Notes under the pieces: generated by a model
Seen by the model: the letters and a program-made list of their open reading frames with translations, nothing else
Told to the model about the DNA's origin: nothing
Databases searched by the model: none
IMG/VR virus record: IMGVR_UViG_640753025_000004
Location: 1 to 20,151 of that record
Reading direction: 5' to 3' (one strand)
Length of the DNA stretch: 20,151 bases
Origin: a virus
Lineage: Duplodnaviria; Heunggongvirae; Uroviricota; Caudoviricetes
Program-made: the position numbers and the translations under genes
Shown here: one piece after another, positions 1-20,151 of the stretch
How positions within the stretch are numbered: the stretch's first letter is position 1
Layout: every line of letters begins with the position of its first letter

Positions 1-393
1 TCATATTACTGGATAATCATCATCATCCTTCCCTATCCGATTGATAACGAATGTCACTACCCCGACAACTGTAACATCATCCAGGGCCTCACCTTCCAAC
101 GCTTCACCGTCTCGTGTAATAAATGCCCGGCCCATAATTTTTGCAAAATCAGTGCCGCCGCCGTATTGAATTAAAACGGTATCTCCTTGCTTTGGTTTTA
201 CGAAGCAATCCACTACGGCATAGCCGGTTTCTGTTTGTACTATCCGAGTATTGGGGCCGGTACCGCAGAGTGAATCAACGGTCAGACGCCGTTCAACATA
301 GTCAGCAGCTGGCGACGGAAATCCCACGTTATAGCCCTCCGTTTGGGTTGTATAACTGGAACGTGAGCTCATCGCCTTCCTGCGTTGAGACAT
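1..393 (-). CDS. UmuD-like S24-family (LexA/UmuD-type) SOS protein; gene runs to the window edge with stop at 1-3
   Basis: Translation contains GFPSPAADYVE, identical to the segment around the UmuD Cys24-Gly25 cleavage site, at the same distance from the N-terminus. C-terminal DDVTVVGVVTFVINRI resembles the UmuD C-terminus (DTLDVFGVVIHVVK) and a GDTVLI block matches GDLLIV. The canonical SG-x-SM serine motif is not evident (region reads TETGYAV). Alternative start at Met8 (about 372) has a better SD (AGGAAGG). Confidence 0.65.
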   Translation of the reverse strand: MSQRRKAMSSRSSYTTQTEGYNVGFPSPAADYVERRLTVDSLCGTGPNTRIVQTETGYAVVDCFVKPKQGDTVLIQYGGGTDFAKIMGRAFITRDGEALEGEALDDVTVVGVVTFVINRIGKDDDDYPVI

Positions 394-2722: not shown

Positions 2723-4786
2723 TCAGAAAACGTTAATACGAAAAGCGGGGAGCCAGTCGTAAAGAGTCACGGATGTGTCATACACCCATATGATTCCAGC
2801 GGAAGATCGAACACACCCTCTTGCACCAAGAGTCCGCCCGGAAGGTTTTACAGATGCGCCGCTCTGAAGTGGGTTTTCTGCTGTCGCATAGGAAACGCGC
2901 CCAAAACGTCCAGAGGGGGCGGTCGCCAGGTTAATCAGCACGCCCTTGCCGTCCGAGCTGATCGCGATGCTCGATATAGCAGGTGGAGCACCAGTCTCAT
3001 CCGTGTAGCTAAAGCCGTAATTGGCCAGACCGGAGGTGTTGATCGTAGTCGTGTCCAGCACCAGGTTCGTATACGCTGGGACATTGATTTGTATCTGCGT
3101 GGGTGAGTTCCACACGAAACTGGTCGGAACCATCCCTGACCAGCCGCTCGTAAACCACTCCTGGAGAAGCGCTCTCGCCACAGCTGCTCCGCGCCGGTTC
3201 TGGCCCGCACACGTCAAGTGCAGACCGTCTGAAATAAAATCGTACTGGTACAAACTATTGACCAGCCTGAATTGCTCTTTTCCGTGCAATCGCGTCGACG
3301 CCAGTCGCGCGTACTGGCCTGTAAATGCACCATGCCCGTCATTGACATACCCCAGCTGGGTAATGGCGATAATCGGCGGTTCGTTTTGACCCGTTCTTGC
3401 GATGATGTCGCTGGTGATTTGTCTCTGGTACTGCCTCATCCGTGATTCATACATTCCTTCTCGTAATCCTGACCAGTCCTCGTCGGACTCTCCCTGCATC
3501 CAGTCAACGCAGAGAACAATCGGCAGCCAGCCGCGTGCTTTACAGGCCGTTACGCAGTCTTCGATTGAATCGAGCAGATACTGATATACCTGGTTACCCC
3601 GTTTCTGGTACTCGTAAGCCTGACCAGACTGCGCACATACGATTGATAGCGTGCGCGGCATGATTCCGGTAGCTGCAGCCATATCGCGAATGAAGGTGTT
3701 CGCGAGGCCGCTTGCGGCCGTTTCTTTATCTGTCCCACTTACTGCCTCAACCAGTGGCACCAGAGTAGTGCTGCGTGTCCCTGTACGCCTAACCCCGCCG
3801 CTGAGCATGAAAGCGTTATCAGGATATATCGGCGTTGCTGCGACAATGGTTTGATCGGCGTCAGGACAATATCCTCGAGCGTTGGATTGCCCAGCAGTCA
3901 CAAAGATAAAACATACAGGCACTGTCTCTGAGTAGGGGTACACAGTAGACCCTGACAAATGAAGTCCATACTCAGGGAGCTGGTTGGCATCATCGTCGCC
4001 ACCACCACCGCCATTTCCGTTATTAACAGCTACCAGGCCACCGTCTGAGTAAATCCAGTGCTTCCCACCAACCGTATAAGCTTCAACGATCTGGTTTGTG
4101 GTTGAATCAACCGTCATCCGCCACACTTTTTCACCGCCAATAAACTGCGGTATAGAACCCTCCCGGCCCAGCGCATAGAGTTCGGATTCTTGTTGGGTTA
4201 AAAGTTCGTAATATTTTCCGTCAGGACCGATTTGAATTAATCTGCCGCTTGTATTTAAAAATGGAGCCACGCGGGAAGTCTCCGGATCATATGCTGCCAG
4301 GGTCACGCTGTCTGGCGATACCTGGTATGCGTAGTCGTCACGAACCATCCGCCGTCCGGTTGGCTGCAGCGTTCCAGCGAGGTTGATATACTCATCGGCC
4401 AGAGAGCTTCCGTCCTGACTGCGGACATAGGTTGTTGAACCTGCCGGAATATTCGCAATATCCGCCTGCGCCGCCGCCAGCGTCATGTACTGCCGGCTGA
4501 GAGGGATCAGGTTTTGGCGGGCTTCATCAATAACAGCGTCGGTAGCAGCTGCCATTTTTTTAGTAGCCCCAATTATCGTATCCTGGGCGTTACCAAAACG
4601 ATCTATAAAAGTATCGCTTTCGCTGTTCAGGAAATCATCGTACGCCAGGGCGTTATCATTCAGATCCTTCATGCTATTTGAAGGTCTTGGATTGCCGGTA
4701 TTATATCTTTTGTCCATACCTGTTCCTGTCTTCATCTTTTCAATGAAGCAATTAAGATTGACGCCCCGCCCCTTCAGGGCTAACAT
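2723..4786 (-). CDS. tailspike-like protein with a SASA/SGNH-type carbohydrate O-acetylesterase domain
   Basis: Long ORF with a central FIFVTAGQSNARGY motif, the GQSN(M)xG nucleophile motif of sialate-O-acetylesterase/DUF303-type esterases (as in prophage NanS-p and esterase tailspikes). A Gly-rich linker precedes it and a C-terminal beta-rich region follows. The true start is probably an internal ATG (about 4735 or 4717, the latter with an AGGA SD). Confidence 0.6.
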   Translation of the reverse strand: MLALKGRGVNLNCFIEKMKTGTGMDKRYNTGNPRPSNSMKDLNDNALAYDDFLNSESDTFIDRFGNAQDTIIGATKKMAAATDAVIDEARQNLIPLSRQYMTLAAAQADIANIPAGSTTYVRSQDGSSLADEYINLAGTLQPTGRRMVRDDYAYQVSPDSVTLAAYDPETSRVAPFLNTSGRLIQIGPDGKYYELLTQQESELYALGREGSIPQFIGGEKVWRMTVDSTTNQIVEAYTVGGKHWIYSDGGLVAVNNGNGGGGGDDDANQLPEYGLHLSGSTVYPYSETVPVCFIFVTAGQSNARGYCPDADQTIVAATPIYPDNAFMLSGGVRRTGTRSTTLVPLVEAVSGTDKETAASGLANTFIRDMAAATGIMPRTLSIVCAQSGQAYEYQKRGNQVYQYLLDSIEDCVTACKARGWLPIVLCVDWMQGESDEDWSGLREGMYESRMRQYQRQITSDIIARTGQNEPPIIAITQLGYVNDGHGAFTGQYARLASTRLHGKEQFRLVNSLYQYDFISDGLHLTCAGQNRRGAAVARALLQEWFTSGWSGMVPTSFVWNSPTQIQINVPAYTNLVLDTTTINTSGLANYGFSYTDETGAPPAISSIAISSDGKGVLINLATAPSGRFGRVSYATAENPLQSGASVKPSGRTLGARGCVRSSAGIIWVYDTSVTLYDWLPAFRINVF
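4757..4785 (+). promoter_or_regulatory. candidate sigma70 promoter for the moron operon
   Basis: TTGACG-N17-TAACAT just upstream of the HTH gene, in the divergent intergenic region. Confidence 0.3.
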
Positions 4787-4794
4787 CGCCTTAC

Positions 4795-5082
4795 GTGTTT
4801 AAACGGTTAAATAAGAGAATGATTTTAATAAATAAATACACCCCTCCAACGCAGGAAGATTTAGCCAGACTGAAATCCGCACTAAATTACTCCGGAAACC
4901 AAATGGCAGGGCTCGCAGGTGTAGCCAGCGATAGCCAATGGCGGAAATACACTGGCGGAGAGAGCCCCAGGGTAATGTCAAGACACATACTGTTTTATAT
5001 TGCAGCTCAGCTTGTTCTGTCTGATGAGCAACTTAACAATGTAATAAATAAAATGCGCGATATTGGCGCGGAGATAAAATAA
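4795..5082 (+). CDS. small HTH (Cro/XRE-like) protein, first gene of the moron
   Basis: The segment TQEDLARLKSALNYSGNQMAGLAGVASDSQWRKYTGGE has an HTH-like pattern. Track start is GTG; first ATG is at 4819. Stop overlaps the acyltransferase start (TAATG). AT-rich. Confidence 0.45.
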   Translation: MFKRLNKRMILINKYTPPTQEDLARLKSALNYSGNQMAGLAGVASDSQWRKYTGGESPRVMSRHILFYIAAQLVLSDEQLNNVINKMRDIGAEIK

Positions 5083-6173
5083 TGCTTGGCCTAATAAGGT
5101 TTTTTTTGGCATCGTGCGTCATTGCTTTTCACTTAACGGCTCGCATACCTGCACTTGGCAACTTTGCAGTGAATTGCTTCTATGTTATTAGTGGTTTTTT
5201 AATAACATACATTTTGCATGAAACATACAAGTTCAACTTCTCTATGTTTTGGAAAAATAGAATACTGAGGTTATTCCCGGCATATATATTTTTTCTCGTC
5301 ATGGGCTTTCTTATTATAAAATTAATTCCATCCGCAAAGGAATTCCACTCAAACTGGACAGGCAATTTCTTACCTGGAGATTTATTAGGAAACCTCTTAA
5401 TCTTCCCCTGGGCTTTCCTTTCTGATAATGCTGTAGCAAATCCATTCGGTGCCTTTTCATCCATTTATCACTTTGCTATTGATGGTAATAGATTCAGAAT
5501 AGTCACATCATCATGGTCAGTGGGTGTTGAGATAACATGTTATTTTTTATTGTGGCTTTTCATAGCCCGAAATAAATTTACAGCCATTACGTCGATTCTG
5601 CTTTCACTGCTTTATCATGCTTACGTATATGTAGTACACCATTCTTTTGATATGGCGTATTTCCCATTCCTTGCTGCAACACTTCCTTTTAGCATGGGTT
5701 CTCTGGGTTATTTTGCCCATAGAAAGTTCAAAGCTATGTATCTTTCTCCACACAAAGCTTTTTTAATAACATTTATTTGCATCGGGATTTTTATTACCAA
5801 TTGGCATTTATATACAATTAATCCATTAGGTCAGTACAACATAATACTTTACTACACCAATAATGTAATAGCATTGTTTACAACCCTGGTATTATTAAAA
5901 ATAAAGACAAACATACATCTTGAGAAAATACTCAAGTGGTTTGGTGACCTGGCCTATCCAATTTTTCTTTGTCAATATTTTGGTGGATTTCTAGCATGGC
6001 TTGCTATTGGTGGTGAAAATCGTGGCTTATCCATCTTTTTATTAGGCTACCCAATATCAATTGCACTTGGGATCGTTTGTGTAATATTAATAGACAAGCC
6101 ACTAATTAAAATTAGAGCAAAAATAAGGGCGGACGCTCAAAGCAAAAATAATCAGGAAAACTCTTCAAGGTAA
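5082..6173 (+). CDS. acyltransferase-3 family integral membrane O-acyltransferase (OafA/Oac-like)
   Basis: Multi-TM protein with family-typical N-terminal motifs (FHLTAR, FYVISGFLITY, WKNRILRLFPAY). Markedly AT-rich relative to flanking phage genes and on the opposite strand. Confidence 0.8.
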   Translation: MLGLIRFFLASCVIAFHLTARIPALGNFAVNCFYVISGFLITYILHETYKFNFSMFWKNRILRLFPAYIFFLVMGFLIIKLIPSAKEFHSNWTGNFLPGDLLGNLLIFPWAFLSDNAVANPFGAFSSIYHFAIDGNRFRIVTSSWSVGVEITCYFLLWLFIARNKFTAITSILLSLLYHAYVYVVHHSFDMAYFPFLAATLPFSMGSLGYFAHRKFKAMYLSPHKAFLITFICIGIFITNWHLYTINPLGQYNIILYYTNNVIALFTTLVLLKIKTNIHLEKILKWFGDLAYPIFLCQYFGGFLAWLAIGGENRGLSIFLLGYPISIALGIVCVILIDKPLIKIRAKIRADAQSKNNQENSSR

Positions 6174-9222: not shown

Positions 9223-9800
9223 ACCTGACTCTCTGTTTTTTCGCTTATGATCGTGCTATCGCCGGACTGAACTTTTTTAACGTCATGGTCATGATCGTTG
9301 TGAGCATCCCGCAGCGCTTTGAGCGTTGAATTGTTCGTCTCGCAGTTATCGATGATGTCACCCGTCACCAGGAGTTTGGGGGTAACCAGCTTTACCTGTT
9401 CCGTTGCCGTCGCGGTGATGTTTCTGGCATTATTGATCTCTACATCTTTGCCTTTCGCATCAATGAAAATTCCCTCCTCGGTCAGATGAATATTCATCCC
9501 CTGCTGGTTATAGACCACGGTTTCGCCTGGCTTAAGCCCGGTATACCGGAAGCTTTGATGGTTAGAGGCAATGACGACAGGACTGGAGCGGTCCCCGCCG
9601 AGAAAGGCAATAAGCACATCCGATCCCGCCGGTAACCCCGATGAAAAACCAAAATCAGAGAGCCGTGGGGCGCTGGCCACTTCCAGCGGAGTCTGGTACT
9701 GGATTTCCTGCACAACCCCGCTATCTTTCTGCGTGGTAATACGGCCAATGCCCAGCATGCCGGCGATGCGCGTGGCCGATTTCTTTAAATTTTGATTCAT
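9219..9800 (-). CDS. baseplate assembly protein V (spike), Mu gp45 / P2 gpV-like
   Basis: 193-aa protein in canonical order after the hub gene, with a 4-nt overlap. Confidence 0.65.
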   Translation of the reverse strand: MNQNLKKSATRIAGMLGIGRITTQKDSGVVQEIQYQTPLEVASAPRLSDFGFSSGLPAGSDVLIAFLGGDRSSPVVIASNHQSFRYTGLKPGETVVYNQQGMNIHLTEEGIFIDAKGKDVEINNARNITATATEQVKLVTPKLLVTGDIIDNCETNNSTLKALRDAHNDHDHDVKKVQSGDSTIISEKTESQV

Positions 9801-10882
9801 TGGTTTAGTCCGGGTATTTGCTGGTAGAAAGCATAAGGCTGGACAGCGAAAGCCTCCGGGGGCATCAGATAAAGGCGCGCATGGGTGCCGTCACTGTCTC
9901 TGATATAAGTCACCTCTGCGATAAGCAATTCGGTGTCAGGCAGCTGCAGACTCGGGATGTTGACCGGGATAAGCGTATTCGGCTCCCATAATTTCCCGGA
10001 TTTATCGCGCCAGGAATCAATCGTCACCGTTAACTGACGGGAACGGCCGTATCGGCGGTTCATCTCCCAGTCAATCGCTCGCTGAGCCTGTTGTGAAGCC
10101 ATCAGTGTACTTTCAACAATAATGATCCGTTTTCGGTAACGCATACTGGCCGCCTCAGGATCGCGGGCCGTCGCCAGCGTCACCGAATCATAAGCCGTAT
10201 CTGGCGAGAATCCTGCAATCGGCGAAATGCTCATCGATACGCCGACGTAATCAGAAAAGCGGTCAGCCATCGAACGGCGGTAATAAGCCTGTTCGATATT
10301 TACCCCTTCTGCGATACCGCTGGCCGCGCGCTTTGTCCCCACCCGGGTCAGAAATAAGTTACCGTCAGGCTGATCGTAATAAAGCAATGCCGACCAGCGG
10401 GAGACACGATCAAGTATTTCCTGTGGCGATTCCCCCCAGTTCAGGGAAAATTGCGGAACTTTCACCAGATCATCAACGTCTGTACTTACGCCAATGTTGT
10501 AATGGGATGCGAGGCGGGAGGCTATATCAAGCGCATTACTGTTATTGATGACGTTATTTGGCCATTCAGCAGAGCAATCAACGAGATCTGCGCACTTACT
10601 GCGGCCTGAGGCTCTGACTTCATGGCGCGAACGGGAAATAGCAGGCGACCAGTCATCAACATACCCCGTCACTACCAGGTCGTTACCAAGCTTTACCTGA
10701 CAAGGCATCCCTTCCTTTACCAGCTGCTTCTGGTCACTTCCCGGAAAATAATCCATCAGTCCCAGGTCAAAATCGGAGGGAAAACGCTCAATGCCACGGG
10801 TCACCCGCACAGAGTCCCATCCTTCAATGATTTTTCCGCCCACTGTCAGGGAGACAATATCCTGATCATTATCCGTACTCAT
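9797..10882 (-). CDS. baseplate hub protein (phage late control D / Mu gp44-like)
   Basis: 361-aa protein at the head of the baseplate cluster; size and sequence character fit the GPD family. Confidence 0.6.
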   Translation of the reverse strand: MSTDNDQDIVSLTVGGKIIEGWDSVRVTRGIERFPSDFDLGLMDYFPGSDQKQLVKEGMPCQVKLGNDLVVTGYVDDWSPAISRSRHEVRASGRSKCADLVDCSAEWPNNVINNSNALDIASRLASHYNIGVSTDVDDLVKVPQFSLNWGESPQEILDRVSRWSALLYYDQPDGNLFLTRVGTKRAASGIAEGVNIEQAYYRRSMADRFSDYVGVSMSISPIAGFSPDTAYDSVTLATARDPEAASMRYRKRIIIVESTLMASQQAQRAIDWEMNRRYGRSRQLTVTIDSWRDKSGKLWEPNTLIPVNIPSLQLPDTELLIAEVTYIRDSDGTHARLYLMPPEAFAVQPYAFYQQIPGLNQ

Positions 10883-11265
10883 TGTCTCAACACCTTCATC
10901 GTCGTCGGCATAAATGCCGGATGCGGTACGCTGGCCTCCTGTATCAGTTCATTTGCCCGCGAGGCATCCTGATACAGGCGGTTGGCCAGTACCAGGGCAG
11001 GAACCGGCACCGCAGTATTGATTTGCATCAACTCACTCAGTCCGGATGAAGTCTGAGCCATGGTATTCAGAAAAGCGGTTCTCACGTCCATCAATGCCGT
11101 ATAAAGATCATCATCGCCACGGTCGCCCGCCAGTAGTAACGCGGTATCCAGTTGCCCGGCCACGCGTTGAGTGATTTCTTCGGCCTCATTACGACTGGTT
11201 GGGTTGTAATCTGCAGCAGCATCCGTCATGGCTCCGGTACATAGCACTACGATCAGCGTGTTCAT
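10879..11265 (-). pseudogene. probable C-terminal remnant of an upstream tail gene (possibly Mu gp43/N-like) at a deletion junction
   Basis: 128-aa ORF directly preceding the hub gene. Its 5' part overlaps the run-on 3' end of the D-like gene in another frame. No recognisable N-terminus. Confidence 0.3.
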
Positions 11266-11698
11266 GGTGCCAGCCAGTTGCTGGCTGCTTTCGGAACGCT
11301 GGTAAAGGTGCCTGGGCGCTGTCTTTCAGGAAGATGGCCAGCGGACGTAGTGCTGTTTTCAGTTCCGGCGCAGTCCAGGAATCGTCAAAAATAATATGAT
11401 TCTGGTTGAACTCGCCCATCAGGTACAGGCCGCCGGACTGATCGCCATGGGTGGAAGCGTCAACATCATCAACCAGAATGGCCGCTGGCGTCTCGCTACC
11501 ATCCGTTGCGGTTTTCACACTGGCTGTATATTTGCCACTGGCGGTGATCATGCCAAGCACAGTGCCACGCTTATACACACCGCCGGTGATCGTGCCGGTG
11601 TCAGTGACCAGTTGCAGCGTACCGGCAATTAACTGATCCGGCACAAACACTGAACTCTTCATGCCAGGTGCAAAGGCATTCTGACCAAATTGATCCAT
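11189..11698 (-). CDS. head decoration protein (lambda D-like) with aberrant 3' extension
   Basis: Position after the scaffold gene with TAATG coupling and SD AAGGAGAG. The first roughly 124 aa resemble D-like proteins in length and pattern; the ORF then continues about 45 codons beyond the expected end. Confidence 0.45.
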   Translation of the reverse strand: MDQFGQNAFAPGMKSSVFVPDQLIAGTLQLVTDTGTITGGVYKRGTVLGMITASGKYTASVKTATDGSETPAAILVDDVDASTHGDQSGGLYLMGEFNQNHIIFDDSWTAPELKTALRPLAIFLKDSAQAPLPAFRKQPATGWHHEHADRSAMYRSHDGCCCRLQPNQS

Positions 11699-15058: not shown

Positions 15059-17191
15059 TTATTGCGGCAGGAGTTTAGAAATGTTCTTACGCTTAACAGG
15101 AGCCATAGCCTCATCCACGATGGCACCCGGTAATTCGTAATTGATTTTTTCTTCTGGCTCGGCTGGCGCCGGCAGGAACTTATCGGGATCGGCCTGAAGG
15201 TTAGCGGCCCGAACATTGAGTTTTAATCCCATATGTTTCAGCCCACACAACGCGGCATAGCTGTAAACGAGGCAGTCGAGTGCTTCGTTCGCCCGTCCGG
15301 GGATAGGCTCCCAGACACTGAATCGCTGACCGGCCACCACTTTATAAACCAGTCGCTCGGCCAGCAGCTGGTTGAAATAGCCGAGGTCACGATCATCCGG
15401 GAAGTGCATATAGCCCGCACCGGCAGTACCTAAAGCTGGCGGTTCAAGATGCAGACGACCACGGACAACATCTTTCGCAGAGTTCACGCCAAGTATAATT
15501 GGCCTGAAGCTGGCTTTACTTTTTGATGTCGGTCGCTTGGTTGGCCAGACGGGGTTGCGTTTCCCACCCTGCGCAGATTCGCCCTTGATAGCCCAGACGC
15601 GGCGCCCAAGGCGATCTTTGCAGAACTCATAAACCTTTTGCGTGTGGTGACCGCCGGAGTCCATACATGCAGCCAGAATATTCAGCCCTCGCCCGTCGCC
15701 GCGTCGCCATATCTGTTTCAGGTACGCATCGAGGCGCTTCCAGGGTTCCTCAGTCTCCAGATCGCCATAAATGACGTCATGCGCAACTGACCACGATTCC
15801 TCGTCCCGCCCCCAGCCAGTGATCGTGATTTCGAATCGGTCATCCTGAGTATCGACGCCCGCAGTTAACAATGCCACGCCATCAGGAACGACGGCCGGGA
15901 AGACTTCACGGCGCGCCAGCAGGACATCAACCGGGAGCTGTTTCCCGTGGTTAGGCCGGTGCGGCAACCCCATCTGGGTGTTCCACCAGGCCTGTTCCTT
16001 ATCCGGATCCCCTTTCGCATCGAGGTATTTCTTTGCAATGTCCGATGGCTTGTCTTTTTGCCAGGGACTGAAGAGTTTTGACGCCTGGTACCCGGCGTGG
16101 TGATTATCCAGCGCCTCGGCCCCGCAGTCCGGGCAAATCGCCCGGTATACGGCATGCCGTTCCGACTCTGACCAGCGCCAGACGGCATCAACACTGCCCT
16201 CGTCTCCTTCATGCCATTTCTGGTCGTATTCCATTAATGGTGAATGGCGGGAACCACAACATTCAAACGGTTTGGTCTGATGCCAGCGGATTGTCTGTAA
16301 TGCCCGCAGACGCTCACCCTCTGACCAGCCAGCACCACAACATTCACAATGGATCATGGCCGCTTTGGTCAGGTGCTTATCACCTTCTTTTGGCCATTGA
16401 ACATGTTTGAAGAAATCAAGGAACTGTCGGTGCCCGCAATGGGGGCAAACTACAGAGGCCCGCCGCTGATCTGAATCTTCGTAACTGTCAGCAATCCGGC
16501 TTTCATCTTCGATCGTCGGCGAACAAGCCCGCACGGACAGCCAGTTAAGGCCAAATGTGGCGGTTCGCTCTTCCGCCAGAGCGATGGGATCGCCCTCACG
16601 GGTAATCGGATATTTATCCACCTCATCTGCCAGCAGAACACGGATCGGACGGCGCGCAAGGTTATCTGGACTACCGGCGCCGGCCAGCGCCAGAAATCCG
16701 CCGGTGAAAGCTTTATACAGAATGGTTTCTTTTGAACTCTTCTGCTTTGAGTCACCTATGATGTTACGCAGAACTGGCGTTACCCTAACCAGCGGGCTGA
16801 TGCGTTCTTTGGAAAACTGCTCAGCGGCCTCTTCCTTCGGCTGCAGGAGCAAAATCGGACATGGGTCGAGGTGCGCAAAATAACCAAACAGGTTTTCCAG
16901 CAGCGCGGTTTTCATTAACTGGGTACAGCACATCACGGTGATAATGTGGACGCCCGATTCCGTCGCGGCCAGCATAGGACCGCGGGCAATTTCAACCGTT
17001 GATGTTTCCCAGTTCCCGGAGGTACTGCCAGCTTCTTTCGCCAGCTTCCGGTAGTCATCGGCCCATTGCGGGACGCTGATCCGCGGCGGCGGTGTCCACC
17101 CTTTCCGGACACTCAGTTGAAGACGCTCAATCTTCCGCTGGGTTAAACTCTGGTTCTCCGAGGACTGAGATATGTTTGTGGACATGTTCAA
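15059..17191 (-). CDS. terminase large subunit (lambda gpA-like)
   Basis: 710-aa protein with an ATPase N-terminal region and a nuclease C-terminal region; overlaps the small-subunit gene by 65 nt as in lambda. Confidence 0.9.
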   Translation of the reverse strand: MNMSTNISQSSENQSLTQRKIERLQLSVRKGWTPPPRISVPQWADDYRKLAKEAGSTSGNWETSTVEIARGPMLAATESGVHIITVMCCTQLMKTALLENLFGYFAHLDPCPILLLQPKEEAAEQFSKERISPLVRVTPVLRNIIGDSKQKSSKETILYKAFTGGFLALAGAGSPDNLARRPIRVLLADEVDKYPITREGDPIALAEERTATFGLNWLSVRACSPTIEDESRIADSYEDSDQRRASVVCPHCGHRQFLDFFKHVQWPKEGDKHLTKAAMIHCECCGAGWSEGERLRALQTIRWHQTKPFECCGSRHSPLMEYDQKWHEGDEGSVDAVWRWSESERHAVYRAICPDCGAEALDNHHAGYQASKLFSPWQKDKPSDIAKKYLDAKGDPDKEQAWWNTQMGLPHRPNHGKQLPVDVLLARREVFPAVVPDGVALLTAGVDTQDDRFEITITGWGRDEESWSVAHDVIYGDLETEEPWKRLDAYLKQIWRRGDGRGLNILAACMDSGGHHTQKVYEFCKDRLGRRVWAIKGESAQGGKRNPVWPTKRPTSKSKASFRPIILGVNSAKDVVRGRLHLEPPALGTAGAGYMHFPDDRDLGYFNQLLAERLVYKVVAGQRFSVWEPIPGRANEALDCLVYSYAALCGLKHMGLKLNVRAANLQADPDKFLPAPAEPEEKINYELPGAIVDEAMAPVKRKNISKLLPQ

Positions 17192-17690
17192 TCAGCACCT
17201 CTGTCATCCTGTCCGCCGGCACATTCAGATCGGCGGCTATCAGCGGTGCCACGCGTGAAGGCCAGTTCAGCCAGGCATCACGCTGCTGGCGAAAGGCGTT
17301 AAACAGAACCTCCTCGGCGATGGCCAATTCAATTGTCTGGCCGCTGTCTTTTTCATACTGGAGCTTTGCCTGCAGGGCCATGTAATTTTCACGGATCCGC
17401 GCGGCCTCTTCCCTGGAAAGGACTGCACCTTCTGTAAGCATTATCTGGCGAACGGTTTCATCAATTTCATCGTCGCCATCATTCCGGGGTGCTGGGGCTT
17501 TTTTCTTCTTCGCGTTTGATGCCCGCGGATCTTTTCCATCACGGTTTTTCTTCAGCGCGGCATCGCTCGCCTCAACATCAATCAGGTCGCCATCCATGAC
17601 GATAAACCGACCAGCCTTGATCCATCGGCCAATAGTCTTGCGATCGACGCCTGAATGTTGCGCGTACTGACTCTGGTTCATCGTGGTCAT
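17127..17690 (-). CDS. terminase small subunit (Nu1-like, winged HTH N-terminus)
   Basis: N-terminus QYAQHSGVDRKTIGRWIKAGRF parallels the Nu1 DNA-binding domain; sits immediately downstream of the cos-like repeat array. Confidence 0.7.
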   Translation of the reverse strand: MTTMNQSQYAQHSGVDRKTIGRWIKAGRFIVMDGDLIDVEASDAALKKNRDGKDPRASNAKKKKAPAPRNDGDDEIDETVRQIMLTEGAVLSREEAARIRENYMALQAKLQYEKDSGQTIELAIAEEVLFNAFRQQRDAWLNWPSRVAPLIAADLNVPADRMTEVLIEHVHKHISVLGEPEFNPAED

Positions 17691-17840
17691 GGGACATCAC
17701 CTGGGACATTTTTGGGGTGGGACATTTACCTGGGACATTTTTTCAATGTCCCACACGAATGTCCCACTGGAATAAATGGAATAATCCGTGCTGGCTCTGG
17801 CGTGGCTGGCGATCCCTTGGGGTGGGACATGGGACACAAA
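17690..17840. promoter_or_regulatory. cos-region repeat array (candidate small-terminase binding sites, cosB-like)
   Basis: Four direct TGGGACAT copies at about 17690, 17703, 17718 and 17731 (13-15 bp spacing), two inverted ATGTCCCA copies at about 17746 and 17759, and a further TGGGACATGGGACA at about 17823-17837. Confidence 0.5.
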
Positions 17841-17937
17841 ATAAAAGTTTGTAGCTAGGAAAACACTGCGGCGCGCAATGCCCGTGCCTTACAAAAGTCT
17901 CAGGAAGGACCCAAACCCTATGGGGTAGGTATTCAGG

Positions 17938-18462
17938 TCATTTTGCCGTTCGAATCGCTTCCTCAATCGCCCTACTCAGCGCGCCGGGCATTAAGCCGGC
18001 TGCCATTGACCGTGAGCGGTTCATGTAGTCAAGCGTAGGCGTAACAGGTAGAGCATCACCAAACCTCACCAGCAGCTTAGGAGCACGCTGTTTCCGCTTT
18101 GGTCTGCGCGTACCATTCGCTGAGCGCCGGGCTCGTTTCTTTTTCGCCTTCTTCGGTTTACGCCTCTGCCAGACAGCATCAACACCATTGACCTCACCTA
18201 CGAACACATTCGGCTTCGCTTTCAACTGCGACAGCTTATTTCGCGGCATGTTGCCGTATTTGTTCAGTTTGATGTTCTTTGGATTGAGCAGCGCCTGGCT
18301 GTTCAGTTTATGTTCACCACCAAATTCAAAGGGTTCGAGATATTCAGCGGCGACATCGCGCACAAAGACTTTTGCGCGGAGGTTGTTCTTTCTGGCGCCA
18401 GCAGAGCCCACTGAGTTGACGGTGAACGGCGTCGGCGATTCCAGTTTTCGCCCCAGTGCCAC
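17938..18462 (-). CDS. hypothetical highly basic protein, possibly a 5'-truncated late gene
   Basis: ORF in head-gene orientation upstream of cos, with a Lys/Arg-rich tract (RRKPKKAKKKRARR...RRPKRKQR). Starts with GTG exactly where the integrase fragment begins on the other strand. Confidence 0.3.
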   Translation of the reverse strand: MALGRKLESPTPFTVNSVGSAGARKNNLRAKVFVRDVAAEYLEPFEFGGEHKLNSQALLNPKNIKLNKYGNMPRNKLSQLKAKPNVFVGEVNGVDAVWQRRKPKKAKKKRARRSANGTRRPKRKQRAPKLLVRFGDALPVTPTLDYMNRSRSMAAGLMPGALSRAIEEAIRTAK

Positions 18463-19058
18463 CTTTTGCGCTGCGGCGATATCAGCGTGGTTATGTACCA
18501 GGTAATCCGTGTGTTGGTGTCGATAAGTTTCCTAAACCCCAGCGCGACCGCTACATAACTGATGAAGAGTACATAGCTATCTTCACTCATGCGACACCTG
18601 CAGTTAAAGCCGCGATGGAAATTGCGTATCTTTGCGCTGCAAGGGTATCTGATGTTCTTAAAATGAACTGGAATCAGATTCTTGATAAAGGAATTTTCAT
18701 ACAGCAAGGTAAAACTGGTATTAAACAGATCAAAGCCTGGACTGAGCGTCTTAGTGCGGCTGTGGATATTTGCAGGGAATGGGGACAGGATGGCCCTGTT
18801 ATCAGGACAATGTATGGTGAGCGTTATTCATACAAGGGATTTAATGAAGCATGGAGAAAAGCGAGAAACGCGGCTTCTGAAGAACTTGGTAGGCCACTTG
18901 ATTGCACCTTCCATGATCTAAAGGCTAAAGGGATCTCAGACTATGAAGGATCTGGCAGGGATAAGCAAAAATTCAGTGGTCATAAGACAGAATCACAGGT
19001 ACTTGTTTACGACAGGAAAGTTAAAATCAGCCCAACGTTGAACAAGAAAATGAGATGA
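18456..19058 (+). pseudogene. 5'-truncated tyrosine integrase (lambda Int family), catalytic domain only
   Basis: Catalytic-domain pattern present (ARVSDVLKMNW, HDLKAKG, GHKTESQVLVYDR with the terminal Tyr). The roughly 170 N-terminal residues are missing; the ORF begins with GTG and the first in-frame ATG is about 54 codons in. Confidence 0.8.
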
Positions 19059-19065
19059 TTCTTTG

Positions 19066-19098
19066 GCGTCGGAGCATGCTTCGGCGCTAGAATTTTTC
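19066..19098 (+). terminator. Rho-independent terminator-like hairpin after the integrase fragment
   Basis: GCGTCGGAGC/GCTTCGGCGC stem (with G-U pairs) followed by AATTTTTCTC. Confidence 0.45.
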
Positions 19099-19170
19099 TC
19101 AGTGGATTTTCTCAATTTTTCTCATCGGGATGCAGGTCACTGAAAGGGAATGCTGTAAGTGTTTGAATAG

Positions 19171-19260
19171 TGGCGGAGAGAGGGGGATTTGAACCCCCGG
19201 TAGAGTTGCCCCTACTCCGGTTTTCGAGACCGGTCCGTTCAGCCGCTCCGGCATCTCTCC
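19171..19260 (-). tRNA. serU: tRNA-Ser, anticodon CGA
   Basis: Reverse complement reads GGAGAGATGCCGGAGCGGCTGAACGGACCGGTCTCGAAAACCGGAGTAGGGGCAACTCTACCGGGGGTTCAAATCCCCCTCTCTCCGCCA, a class II tRNA with long variable arm, CGA anticodon and encoded CCA. Its 3' end faces the integrase fragment. Confidence 0.9.
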
Positions 19261-19353
19261 GTTCAGATGGTTGCCATGATGCCAGGAAATTTGGCATTTT
19301 AACAGTCCCTGTCCGTGCAATTTTGTTCAAGTGACGAGTTTGCGAGCAAAACG

Positions 19354-20151
19354 ATGATTAAGTGGCCCTGGAAAGTACAAGAATCAGCACATCAAACTGC
19401 CCTTCCCTGGCAGGAAGCACTATCGATCCCCCTTTTAACGGGTCTGACGGAACAGGAACAAAGCAAATTAGTCACTCTTGCCGAACGTTTTTTACAGCAA
19501 AAGCGGCTTGTTCCTTTACAGGGCTTTGAACTGGATTCATTAAGAAGCTGCCGGATAGCACTTCTATTTTGCCTACCCGTTCTGGAGTTAGGACTGGAAT
19601 GGCTGGATGGTTTTCATGAAGTCTTAATTTATCCTGCGCCATTTGTGGTCGATGATGAATGGGAAGACGATATCGGTCTGGTGCATAACCAACGTATTGT
19701 TCAGTCAGGTCAGAGCTGGCAGCAAGGGCCTATCGTTTTGAACTGGTTGGATATACAAGATTCTTTTGATGCTTCTGGTTTTAACCTGATTATTCATGAA
19801 GTCGCTCATAAGCTGGACACCCGTAACGGCGATCGCGCCAGCGGAGTTCCCTTTATTCCGTTGCGTGAGGTTGCTGGCTGGGAACACGATCTTCATGCTG
19901 CAATGAACAACATTCAGGAAGAAATCGAATTGGTTGGCGAGAATGCGGCGAGCATTGATGCTTATGCTGCCAGTGATCCTGCTGAATGTTTTGCCGTACT
20001 TTCTGAATATTTCTTTAGCGCCCCAGAACTTTTTGCTCCTCGTTTCCCTTCATTGTGGCAACGTTTCTGCCAATTTTATCAACAAGATCCTTTGCAGAGA
20101 CTGCATCGCACTAATGATACAGACTCGTTTTCGGCGACGAATGTTCATTAA
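19354..20151 (+). CDS. mtfA: Mlc titration factor A (MtfA, zinc-dependent peptidase)
   Basis: Protein [28 protein letters not shown]... with HEVAHKLD zinc-binding motif. The track ORF begins at an upstream GTG (19315) but the ATG at 19354 is the likely start. Host core gene. Confidence 0.9.

Follow-up and report, generated by a model that had tools for sequence, protein, structure and literature searches.

Positions 17690-17912 of a 20,151-nucleotide stretch of Caudoviricetes DNA (IMG/VR virus record IMGVR_UViG_640753025_000004, positions 1 to 20,151; the whole stretch is referred to as the window) very probably constitute a lambda-type cohesive-end site, cos, of a temperate phage with a terminase of the gpA/Nu1 type. 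On the minus strand the site would run in the order cosQ, cosN, cosB, terS, and the sequence supports placing cosQ at 17906-17912, cosN at 17870-17881 and cosB at 17690-17837. By analogy, we infer protein binding to and bending of this DNA, the positions of the nicks in this phage and the role of cosQ. The parts of the putative site and the terminase genes beside it are as follows, with distances in nucleotides (nt) counted from the predicted left cohesive end.

17906-17912, minus strand: cosQ-like heptamer GGGTCCT, contained in GGGTCCTTCC (17903-17912); starts 31 nt upstream of the predicted top-strand nick.
17870-17881, minus strand: cosN, 12-nt cohesive-end sequence GCATTGCGCGCC, identical to the annotated cosL (1..12) of Serratia phage vB_SspM_BZS1.
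17838-17869, minus strand: conserved segment GCAGTGTTTTCCTAGCTACAAACTTTTATTTTGT, from cosN to the first small-terminase (TerS) sites, at the position of lambda I2.
17823-17837, minus strand: proximal tandem pair of cosB, GTGTCCCA-TGTCCCAC, equivalent to R3; nt 45-59.
17767-17822, no strand assigned: cosB spacer, at the position of the lambda integration host factor (IHF) site I1.
17746-17766, plus strand: two copies in the opposite orientation, with TGGGACAT in the terS direction, equivalent to R2; nt 116-136.
17690-17738, minus strand: four direct copies of ATGTCCCA, equivalent to R1; nt 144-192, the last overlapping the terS start codon.
17127-17690, minus strand: terS, Nu1-family small terminase of 187 amino acids (aa), phrog_57; predicted winged helix-turn-helix at residues 1-50.
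15059-17191, minus strand: terL, gpA-type large terminase (ATPase and cos endonuclease); Pfam GpA_ATPase 5.6e-66 and GpA_nuclease 3.4e-81.

Two isolated phages, Serratia phage vB_SspM_BZS1 (BZS1) and Citrobacter phage phiNP, share DNA with the window in this region. In the BZS1 record the sequence opens with GCATTGCGCGCC, annotated as the left cohesive end, and the Nu1-like gene begins at nt 75. The 12-nt 5' overhang of BZS1 was derived with PhageTerm and confirmed when the sequenced ends of the phage were set against a PCR product spanning the cos of the prophage (PMC7556043). The window holds a single exact copy of this 12-mer, which on the minus strand reads GGGTCCTTCCTGAGACTTTTGTAAGGCACGG/GCATTGCGCGCC/GCAGTGTTTTCCTAGCTACAA; the 12-mer with its flanks is identical to the sequence at the BZS1 end junction and in phiNP, the flanking CACGG and GC are conserved, and the 12-mer is present in most of the relatives that we fetched. 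Nicks are predicted at 17882/17881 on the minus strand and at 17870/17869 on the plus strand, which would leave 5' overhangs. A preliminary description of this DNA had put forward a GC-rich segment as the candidate nicking site. This candidate is supported by homology, because the segment, CTGCGGCGCGCAATGCCCGTGCC, contains the 12-mer and flanks of the mapped BZS1 end, but it lies at 17866-17888 and not, as then given, at 17868-17890.

The relatives fall into two groups by the heptamer in their cosB, TGGGACA in group A, to which the window belongs, and GGTAACA in a sister group, group B, whose members include BZS1, phiNP and phages or prophages of Serratia, Yersinia, Xenorhabdus, Photorhabdus, Edwardsiella and Klebsiella. 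The cosQ-like heptamer GGGTCCT is found at -31 (-30 in one locus) in all 11 loci of groups A and B that we mapped, and most of the other loci checked also carry the element. The right end of lambda, GGGTCCTttccggtgatccgacaggttacg, contains GGGTCCTttcc, the same heptamer, at -30 from the nick, and we take this heptamer to be the cosQ of lambda. The element GGGTCCTTCC at 17903-17912, which the preliminary description did not mention, is likely to be cosQ, with a role in termination suggested by analogy. The 7-bp cosQ is highly conserved across lambda-like phages (PMC4669245). Between cosN and the first TerS sites, CTAGCTAnnAAnTTTTnAAATTT is common to both groups, and by analogy 17838-17869 may play the part of I2 (comparison with PMC4669245).

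On the terS side of this segment lies a dense array of short repeats. Exact copies of TGGGACAT start on the plus strand at 17690, 17702, 17718, 17731 and 17823 and occupy 17746-17753 and 17759-17766 on the minus strand; together with a one-mismatch copy, TGGGACAC (17830-17837), which overlaps the 17823 copy by one base, these seven make eight TGGGACA cores within 17690-17837. The 7-mer core occurs ten times in the window, eight of these within the 147 bp of 17690-17836. Shuffled versions of the whole window contain 2.44 copies on average and eight at most, with none of 100 shuffles reaching ten. This confirms the periodic repeat array reported at the cos region in the preliminary description. 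Four direct copies are present, but their start-to-start distances are 12, 16 and 13 bp and not the 13-15 bp first stated. The array does begin at the start codon of the Nu1-like gene, the first copy overlapping the first ATG of terS (17690, minus strand) in the reading ATGTCCC-ATG-ACC, and the two inverted copies are followed, as described, by a tandem pair about 60 bp further on (57 bp past the last inverted copy).

The array spans the 190 bp that separate cosN from terS. Read on the minus strand from cosN, it consists of the tandem pair, a spacer, the two inverted copies and the four direct copies. With sites oriented in the terS direction marked > and inverted sites marked <, the GTCCCA cores map from the left end to 47>, 54>; 116<, 129<; and 146>, 159>, 175>, 187>, with the terS ATG at 192. 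The CGTTTCC cores of lambda map to 53>, 114< and 155>, with its terS ATG at 191. The array therefore agrees with the 'complex' cosB of lambda in order, orientation and distance, with direct, inverted and direct putative TerS sites at about +50, +115 and +150 and a terS start at about +191. The lambda cosB comprises R3, R2 and R1, of which R2 is inverted, with an IHF site between R3 and R2 (PMC4669245).

Clusters of short direct and inverted repeats are also typical of replication-origin iterons and of centromere-like partition sites of the parS type, and one weak fold match was to a plasmid centromere-binding protein (rank 15). Such a function is extremely improbable here: the repeats have late genes on one side and the terminase on the other and adjoin a mapped cohesive-end sequence; neither rep nor par genes occur nearby; and group A has no strongly AT-rich unwinding region.

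Assignment of the repeats to cosB is also favoured by their conservation. We collected 86 cos regions with the same TerS type (group A), 64 of them unique, from E. coli genomes, IMG/VR and species-representative genomes. Across the 64 unique regions the mean column entropy is 0.051 for the octamers and 0.055 for the cosN 12-mer, compared with 0.485 for the cosB spacers and 0.280 for the first 149 nt of terS. Relatives from Serratia, Yersinia, Salmonella diarizonae and Pantoea with TerS proteins 55-69% identical to that of the window have spacers unrelated in sequence, and still carry the tandem pair at +47/48 and +54/55, as many as three inverted copies and 3-5 direct copies running onto the ATG. 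Octamers that stay constant among drifting or replaced spacers are the hallmark of a motif bound sequence-specifically by a protein. Of the 11 mapped loci of both groups, 10 have the tandem pair at +47/+54 or +48/+55, the remaining one being a group A locus with a single exact copy (L141, which also lacks an exact inverted copy). Inverted copies lie between +116 and +149 in the loci with a long cosB of either motif class, reduced to one in L143 and to no exact copy in L141, and relatives carry 2-5 direct copies up to the ATG.

Within the spacer, the half beside the tandem pair (17787-17822) is variable, and the half beside the inverted pair is a nearly invariant GATTATTCCATTTATTCCAG (17767-17786, minus strand) with two TTATTCCA elements 9 bp apart; in distant relatives the spacers are unrelated or AT-rich. 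The array also contains an inverted repeat with 23-nt arms, and RNA folding of the inverted and direct copies gives a minimum free energy of -36.1 kcal/mol (z = -4.67), which none of 200 shuffles equalled. The functional unit could on this ground be a hairpin or cruciform at 17717-17767, acting as a terS RNA leader or as a DNA cruciform, with the repeats conserved merely to keep the stem. We consider this very improbable, given that BZS1, a functional phage, and other relatives with a short cosB have no inverted copies at all, and that the tandem pair and the two outer direct copies are equally conserved outside the stem. A stem would moreover tolerate compensatory changes, whereas the motif is invariant within a group and swapped wholesale between groups. 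An Rfam scan of 17000-19400 returned only a tRNA and sub-threshold noise.

The genes that follow the array encode the two terminase subunits expected beside a cosB. The terS open reading frame (ORF) matches the phrog_57 profile, 'terminase small subunit', over its full length (E=1.7e-34), and this family also includes lambda Nu1 (E=1.3e-76). The relationship between TerS and Nu1 appears at profile level only, through phrog_57, an aspect missing from the preliminary description. In an AlphaFold2 model the TerS N-terminal domain is predicted to have the order strand-helix-turn-helix-strand-strand-helix at a predicted local distance difference test score of about 80; a basic linker, modelled as disordered, connects it to a C-terminal part that is helical. 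A Foldseek search of the Protein Data Bank (PDB) with this domain ranked mycobacteriophage Pukovnik Xis, BldC, RacA and the gpNu1 DNA-binding domain highest. All of these matches have E values of at least 0.58, so the model is compatible with a winged helix-turn-helix of the Nu1/Xis/MerR type and does not establish one. The large terminase, TerL, is 49% identical overall to that of BZS1 and about 80% identical in its C-terminal nuclease region (read from the alignment). The p72-like protein encoded upstream of cos is 68% identical between a group A phage and BZS1. With the nuclease as the part of TerL conserved between the groups, these values fit a shared cosN and a swapped cosB.

The motif is exchanged exactly where the TerS N-terminal helix-turn-helix is exchanged. 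Group B retains cosQ, cosN and the segment CTAGCTAnnAAnTTTTGAAATTT, and has GGTAACA at the same positions as TGGGACA in group A. In its long form, the group B cosB consists of a tandem pair, an AT-rich spacer, two inverted copies and 2-4 direct copies; in its short form, found in BZS1 and phiNP, it consists of the tandem pair and one further copy. The TerS N terminus reads MNQSDFAKLHGVSRKTVTxWKARGWLV in the GGTAACA group and MNQSQYAQHSGVDRKTIGRWIKAGRFIV in the TGGGACA group. Differences concentrate in residues 17-26 of the AlphaFold2 model, in predicted helix 2, which is SRKTVTxWKARG in group B and DRKTIGRWIKAG in group A. All 99 loci with an A-type N terminus have at least three copies of TGGGACA, and 34 of the 36 loci with a B-type N terminus have at least two copies of GGTAACA. 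The latter include five natural chimeras, with a B-type N terminus and an A-type C terminus (for example P0088 and P0115), which carry 6-8 copies of GGTAACA and no TGGGACA. Sequence comparison thus provides strong circumstantial evidence that the motif follows the TerS N-terminal domain, natural chimeras included.

Mosaic TerS proteins (P0088, P0115 and P0120; L120-L124) have an N-terminal stretch of about 50 aa of the BZS1 type and a C-terminal half nearly identical to that of the E. coli HS type, with the basic linker as the recombination point. Two Photorhabdus loci of group B (L099 and L111) have a degenerate cosB in which one GGTAACA remains and the others are replaced by TTAACAA or TTGACAA; these may be decaying prophages or carry a further shortened cosB. 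The Acidithiobacillus phage AcaML1, whose phrog_57 TerS is more distant, has a third helix-turn-helix and three copies of GTTTCCA, arranged as a tandem pair and one further copy, downstream of GGGTCCTCC and a GC-rich segment. A TerS homologue of Ralstonia phage YO163_3 has no obvious repeats upstream and is uninformative.

The octamers could alternatively be operators for another protein, such as a late-gene regulator, the p72-like protein or a host nucleoid protein, that controls transcription into terS and terL. The array overlaps the ribosome-binding region and start codon of terS, the p72-like gene next to cos encodes a very basic tract, and co-variation with TerS could stem from linkage. 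We nevertheless think operators quite unlikely. A scan of 17500-18100 for sigma-70-like promoters and terminators found none; p72 is a conserved orthologue, 68% identical between the groups despite their different motifs; a host factor cannot account for two or three motifs in phages of overlapping host ranges; and the motif tracks the TerS N-terminal domain in chimeras, in a layout that mirrors the lambda cosB. With no sigma-70-like promoter, terminator or Rfam family found in the region, nothing else fits. The proposal that these are cosB-type small-terminase sites, as the preliminary description had it, is supported by their position between cosN and terS, by their lambda-like orientations and distances, by constraint above that of the spacers and by the swap of the motif together with the TerS helix-turn-helix.

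Several observations weigh against assigning a lambda-type cos. We found no binding, footprint or end mapping for any phage with the TGGGACA motif, and the phage collection yielded no isolated phage whose TerS is of this type. A BLASTP comparison of TerS with lambda Nu1 is not significant, no Pfam family was assigned to TerS, a sequence-profile search of the PDB gave no significant match, and the structural match to the gpNu1 domain (1J9I) is itself not significant (E=2.2, template modelling score 0.51, root-mean-square deviation 2.7 Å over 55 columns). The array has eight sites of 7-8 bp (2 + 2 + 4), whereas lambda has three of about 16 bp, and the spacer at 17767-17822 contains no IHF consensus WATCAANNNNTTR at up to one mismatch; IHF is not strictly required by lambda (PMC4669245). 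The repeats are at most 250 bp away from the codons for the TerS N terminus, so that the co-variation of the two may partly reflect linkage rather than recognition. The prophage remnant that carries the site in E. coli HS, described below, is also without early, lysis, capsid, sheath, tube and tape-measure genes.

If this region is a cos of the lambda type, we envisage that the winged helix-turn-helix of the TerS N-terminal domain would bind the eight (A)TGTCCCA elements, by analogy with lambda. Folding of the spacer would bring the oppositely oriented sites together, and the folded complex would anchor the gpA-type large terminase on cosN, where nicks 12 bp apart would generate the 5' overhang GCATTGCGCGCC. 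Packaging would then proceed toward terS and terL, and the GGGTCCT element 31 bp upstream would act in termination when the next cos is reached.

Eight short, variably spaced heptamers reaching the terS start codon, as against the three sites of lambda, also raise the idea that the heptamers nucleate a cooperative head-to-tail TerS filament like those of BldC and Xis. Such a filament might both position TerL and block late transcription into terS and terL, with the result that terminase would restrict its own production. Apart from this, a group A phage that superinfects HS might begin packaging at serU, from the intact cos that the remnant keeps together with terS and terL, and so mobilize the chromosome next to it. 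We consider these ideas speculative and unlikely.

Compared with lambda, the putative cos shares a 12-nt 5' overhang, GGGTCCT about 30 bp upstream, a gpA-type TerL and a TerS in the PHROG family of Nu1. It differs in its cohesive end, that of lambda (GGGCGGCGACCT) being unrelated and matching GCATTGCGCGCC at 5 of 12 positions, in its motif (TGTCCCA here, CGTTTCC in lambda), in the missing IHF consensus in the spacer and in a TerS without pairwise similarity to Nu1. By sequence, the element resembles the lambda cos functionally but would fall outside the narrow 'lambda-like phages' of Feiss and Casjens, which have lambda-similar cohesive ends.

Another close comparison is with BZS1 and phiNP, which share with the window the cosN 12-mer and its flanks, the cosQ-like element, the I2-like segment and orthologous p72, terL and portal genes, as well as a tandem pair, in their case at +48/+55. 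They differ in having three GGTAACA sites only (a 'simple' cosB), an ATG at +75 and a TerS about 30% identical to that of the window, with a different recognition helix, and the window cosB contains no GGTAACA. We regard the cos in the window as a sister specificity group to the BZS1/phiNP cos.

There is precedent for such a relationship in the packaging-specificity system of the Feiss laboratory: lambda, 21, N15 and Monarch have a common cosQ and cosN together with different R sites and TerS recognition helices, and 'complex' and 'simple' cosBs occur under one specificity (PMC4669245). The exchange of motifs between groups A and B parallels this specificity pattern, and the long and short cosBs of group B parallel the 'complex' and 'simple' cosBs of Monarch and N15. 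The two cases differ in phage lineage and cosN, and specificity is read here from sequence only but in theirs from helper-packaging genetics (lambda, 21 and N15). The BZS1 paper (PMC7556043) reports the 12-bp cos only, and we found no cosB sites described in it; a full-text literature search that combined the motif with cosB gave nothing but primer sequences of no relevance. This kind of element is textbook. With no phage-collection isolate that has this TerS, no paper found on a cosB with this motif and only the 12-bp cos reported for BZS1, the TGGGACA-type cosB appears to represent a specificity not described before, in an architecture that is known.

The site lies in a decayed prophage remnant, a location that the preliminary description did not mention. 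The E. coli HS chromosome matches the window at 100% over the 1.4-kb region compared, with one matching place for the query region per HS genome. The remnant, of about 19.4 kb, sits at tRNA-Ser(CGA) between yodB and mtfA; most IMG/VR relatives measure 40-47 kb. Beyond cosQ the window contains the following features.

17938-18462, minus strand: homologue of phiBZS1_p72, C-terminal part (N-terminally truncated); RefSeq pseudogene.
18456-19058, plus strand: tyrosine integrase, C-terminal 200 aa; RefSeq pseudogene.
19171-19260: tRNA-Ser(CGA).

At a deletion junction (18456-18462) the integrase fragment abuts the truncated p72 homologue, and the entire early and lysis region is gone. A second internal deletion, at 9797-11698, leaves a head-decoration gene almost directly before baseplate genes, with the major capsid, sheath, tube and tape-measure genes missing. 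Downstream of terS and terL lie genes for gpW, the portal and an S49 protease.

With capsid, tail-shaft, lysis and early genes absent, the site is probably without current function in the HS genome. We think it rather likely that it is a dead relic in HS, its cos sequence unused in a remnant unable to excise, to replicate or to make capsids; this reading is about function today and can stand beside the assignment of the region as a cos. Pointing in this direction are the truncated and abutting integrase and p72 homologue, the loss of early, lysis, capsid, sheath, tube and tape-measure genes, the length of about 19.4 kb against 40-47 kb, and the single match per HS genome, which means that no cognate helper is visible. 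Against it, cosQ, cosN, the eight octamers, terS and terL are all intact and agree with the consensus of the family, and a relative of the same TerS specificity could, on superinfection, yet begin packaging at this site. The HS site has most likely become a relic recently and is now out of use. A phage-inducible chromosomal island (PICI) or other satellite fits poorly, given the remnant's own terminase, portal and protease and its intact relatives of 40-47 kb; PICI hallmark genes were not searched for.

In most relatives the p72-like gene, of about 212 aa, lies directly upstream of cos (L005, 3839-4477; L001, 2314-2958), and in BZS1 and two E. coli relatives (L009 and L010) small extra ORFs intervene. 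Its product belongs to phrog_1924, 'minor tail protein', contains a very basic KKAKKKRARR tract and has no Pfam family. In the two E. coli relatives, the extra ORF between the p72-like gene and cosQ (L009, 3888-4391; L010, 3909-4415) is on the opposite strand, encodes a product of 167-168 aa for which Pfam has no family, and is a possible moron. The HS remnant has also kept a sialate O-acetylesterase-type tail-spike gene (2723-4786, minus strand), and on the opposite strand an acyltransferase-family gene (5082-6173, plus strand) is possibly a lysogenic-conversion gene for O-antigen acetylation.

These assignments amount to a complete coordinate-level cos annotation for a widespread enterobacterial prophage family, whose small terminase is now labelled 'hypothetical protein'. 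For the study of how small terminases read DNA, the family offers natural material in the form of a common cosN/cosQ scaffold that has been combined with two or three heptamer specificities, natural chimeras of the N-terminal domain, and both 'complex' and 'simple' versions of cosB. The annotation may be of use in predicting genome ends, in designing cos plasmids or helper-packaging tests, and in judging whether remnants such as that of E. coli HS can be mobilized.

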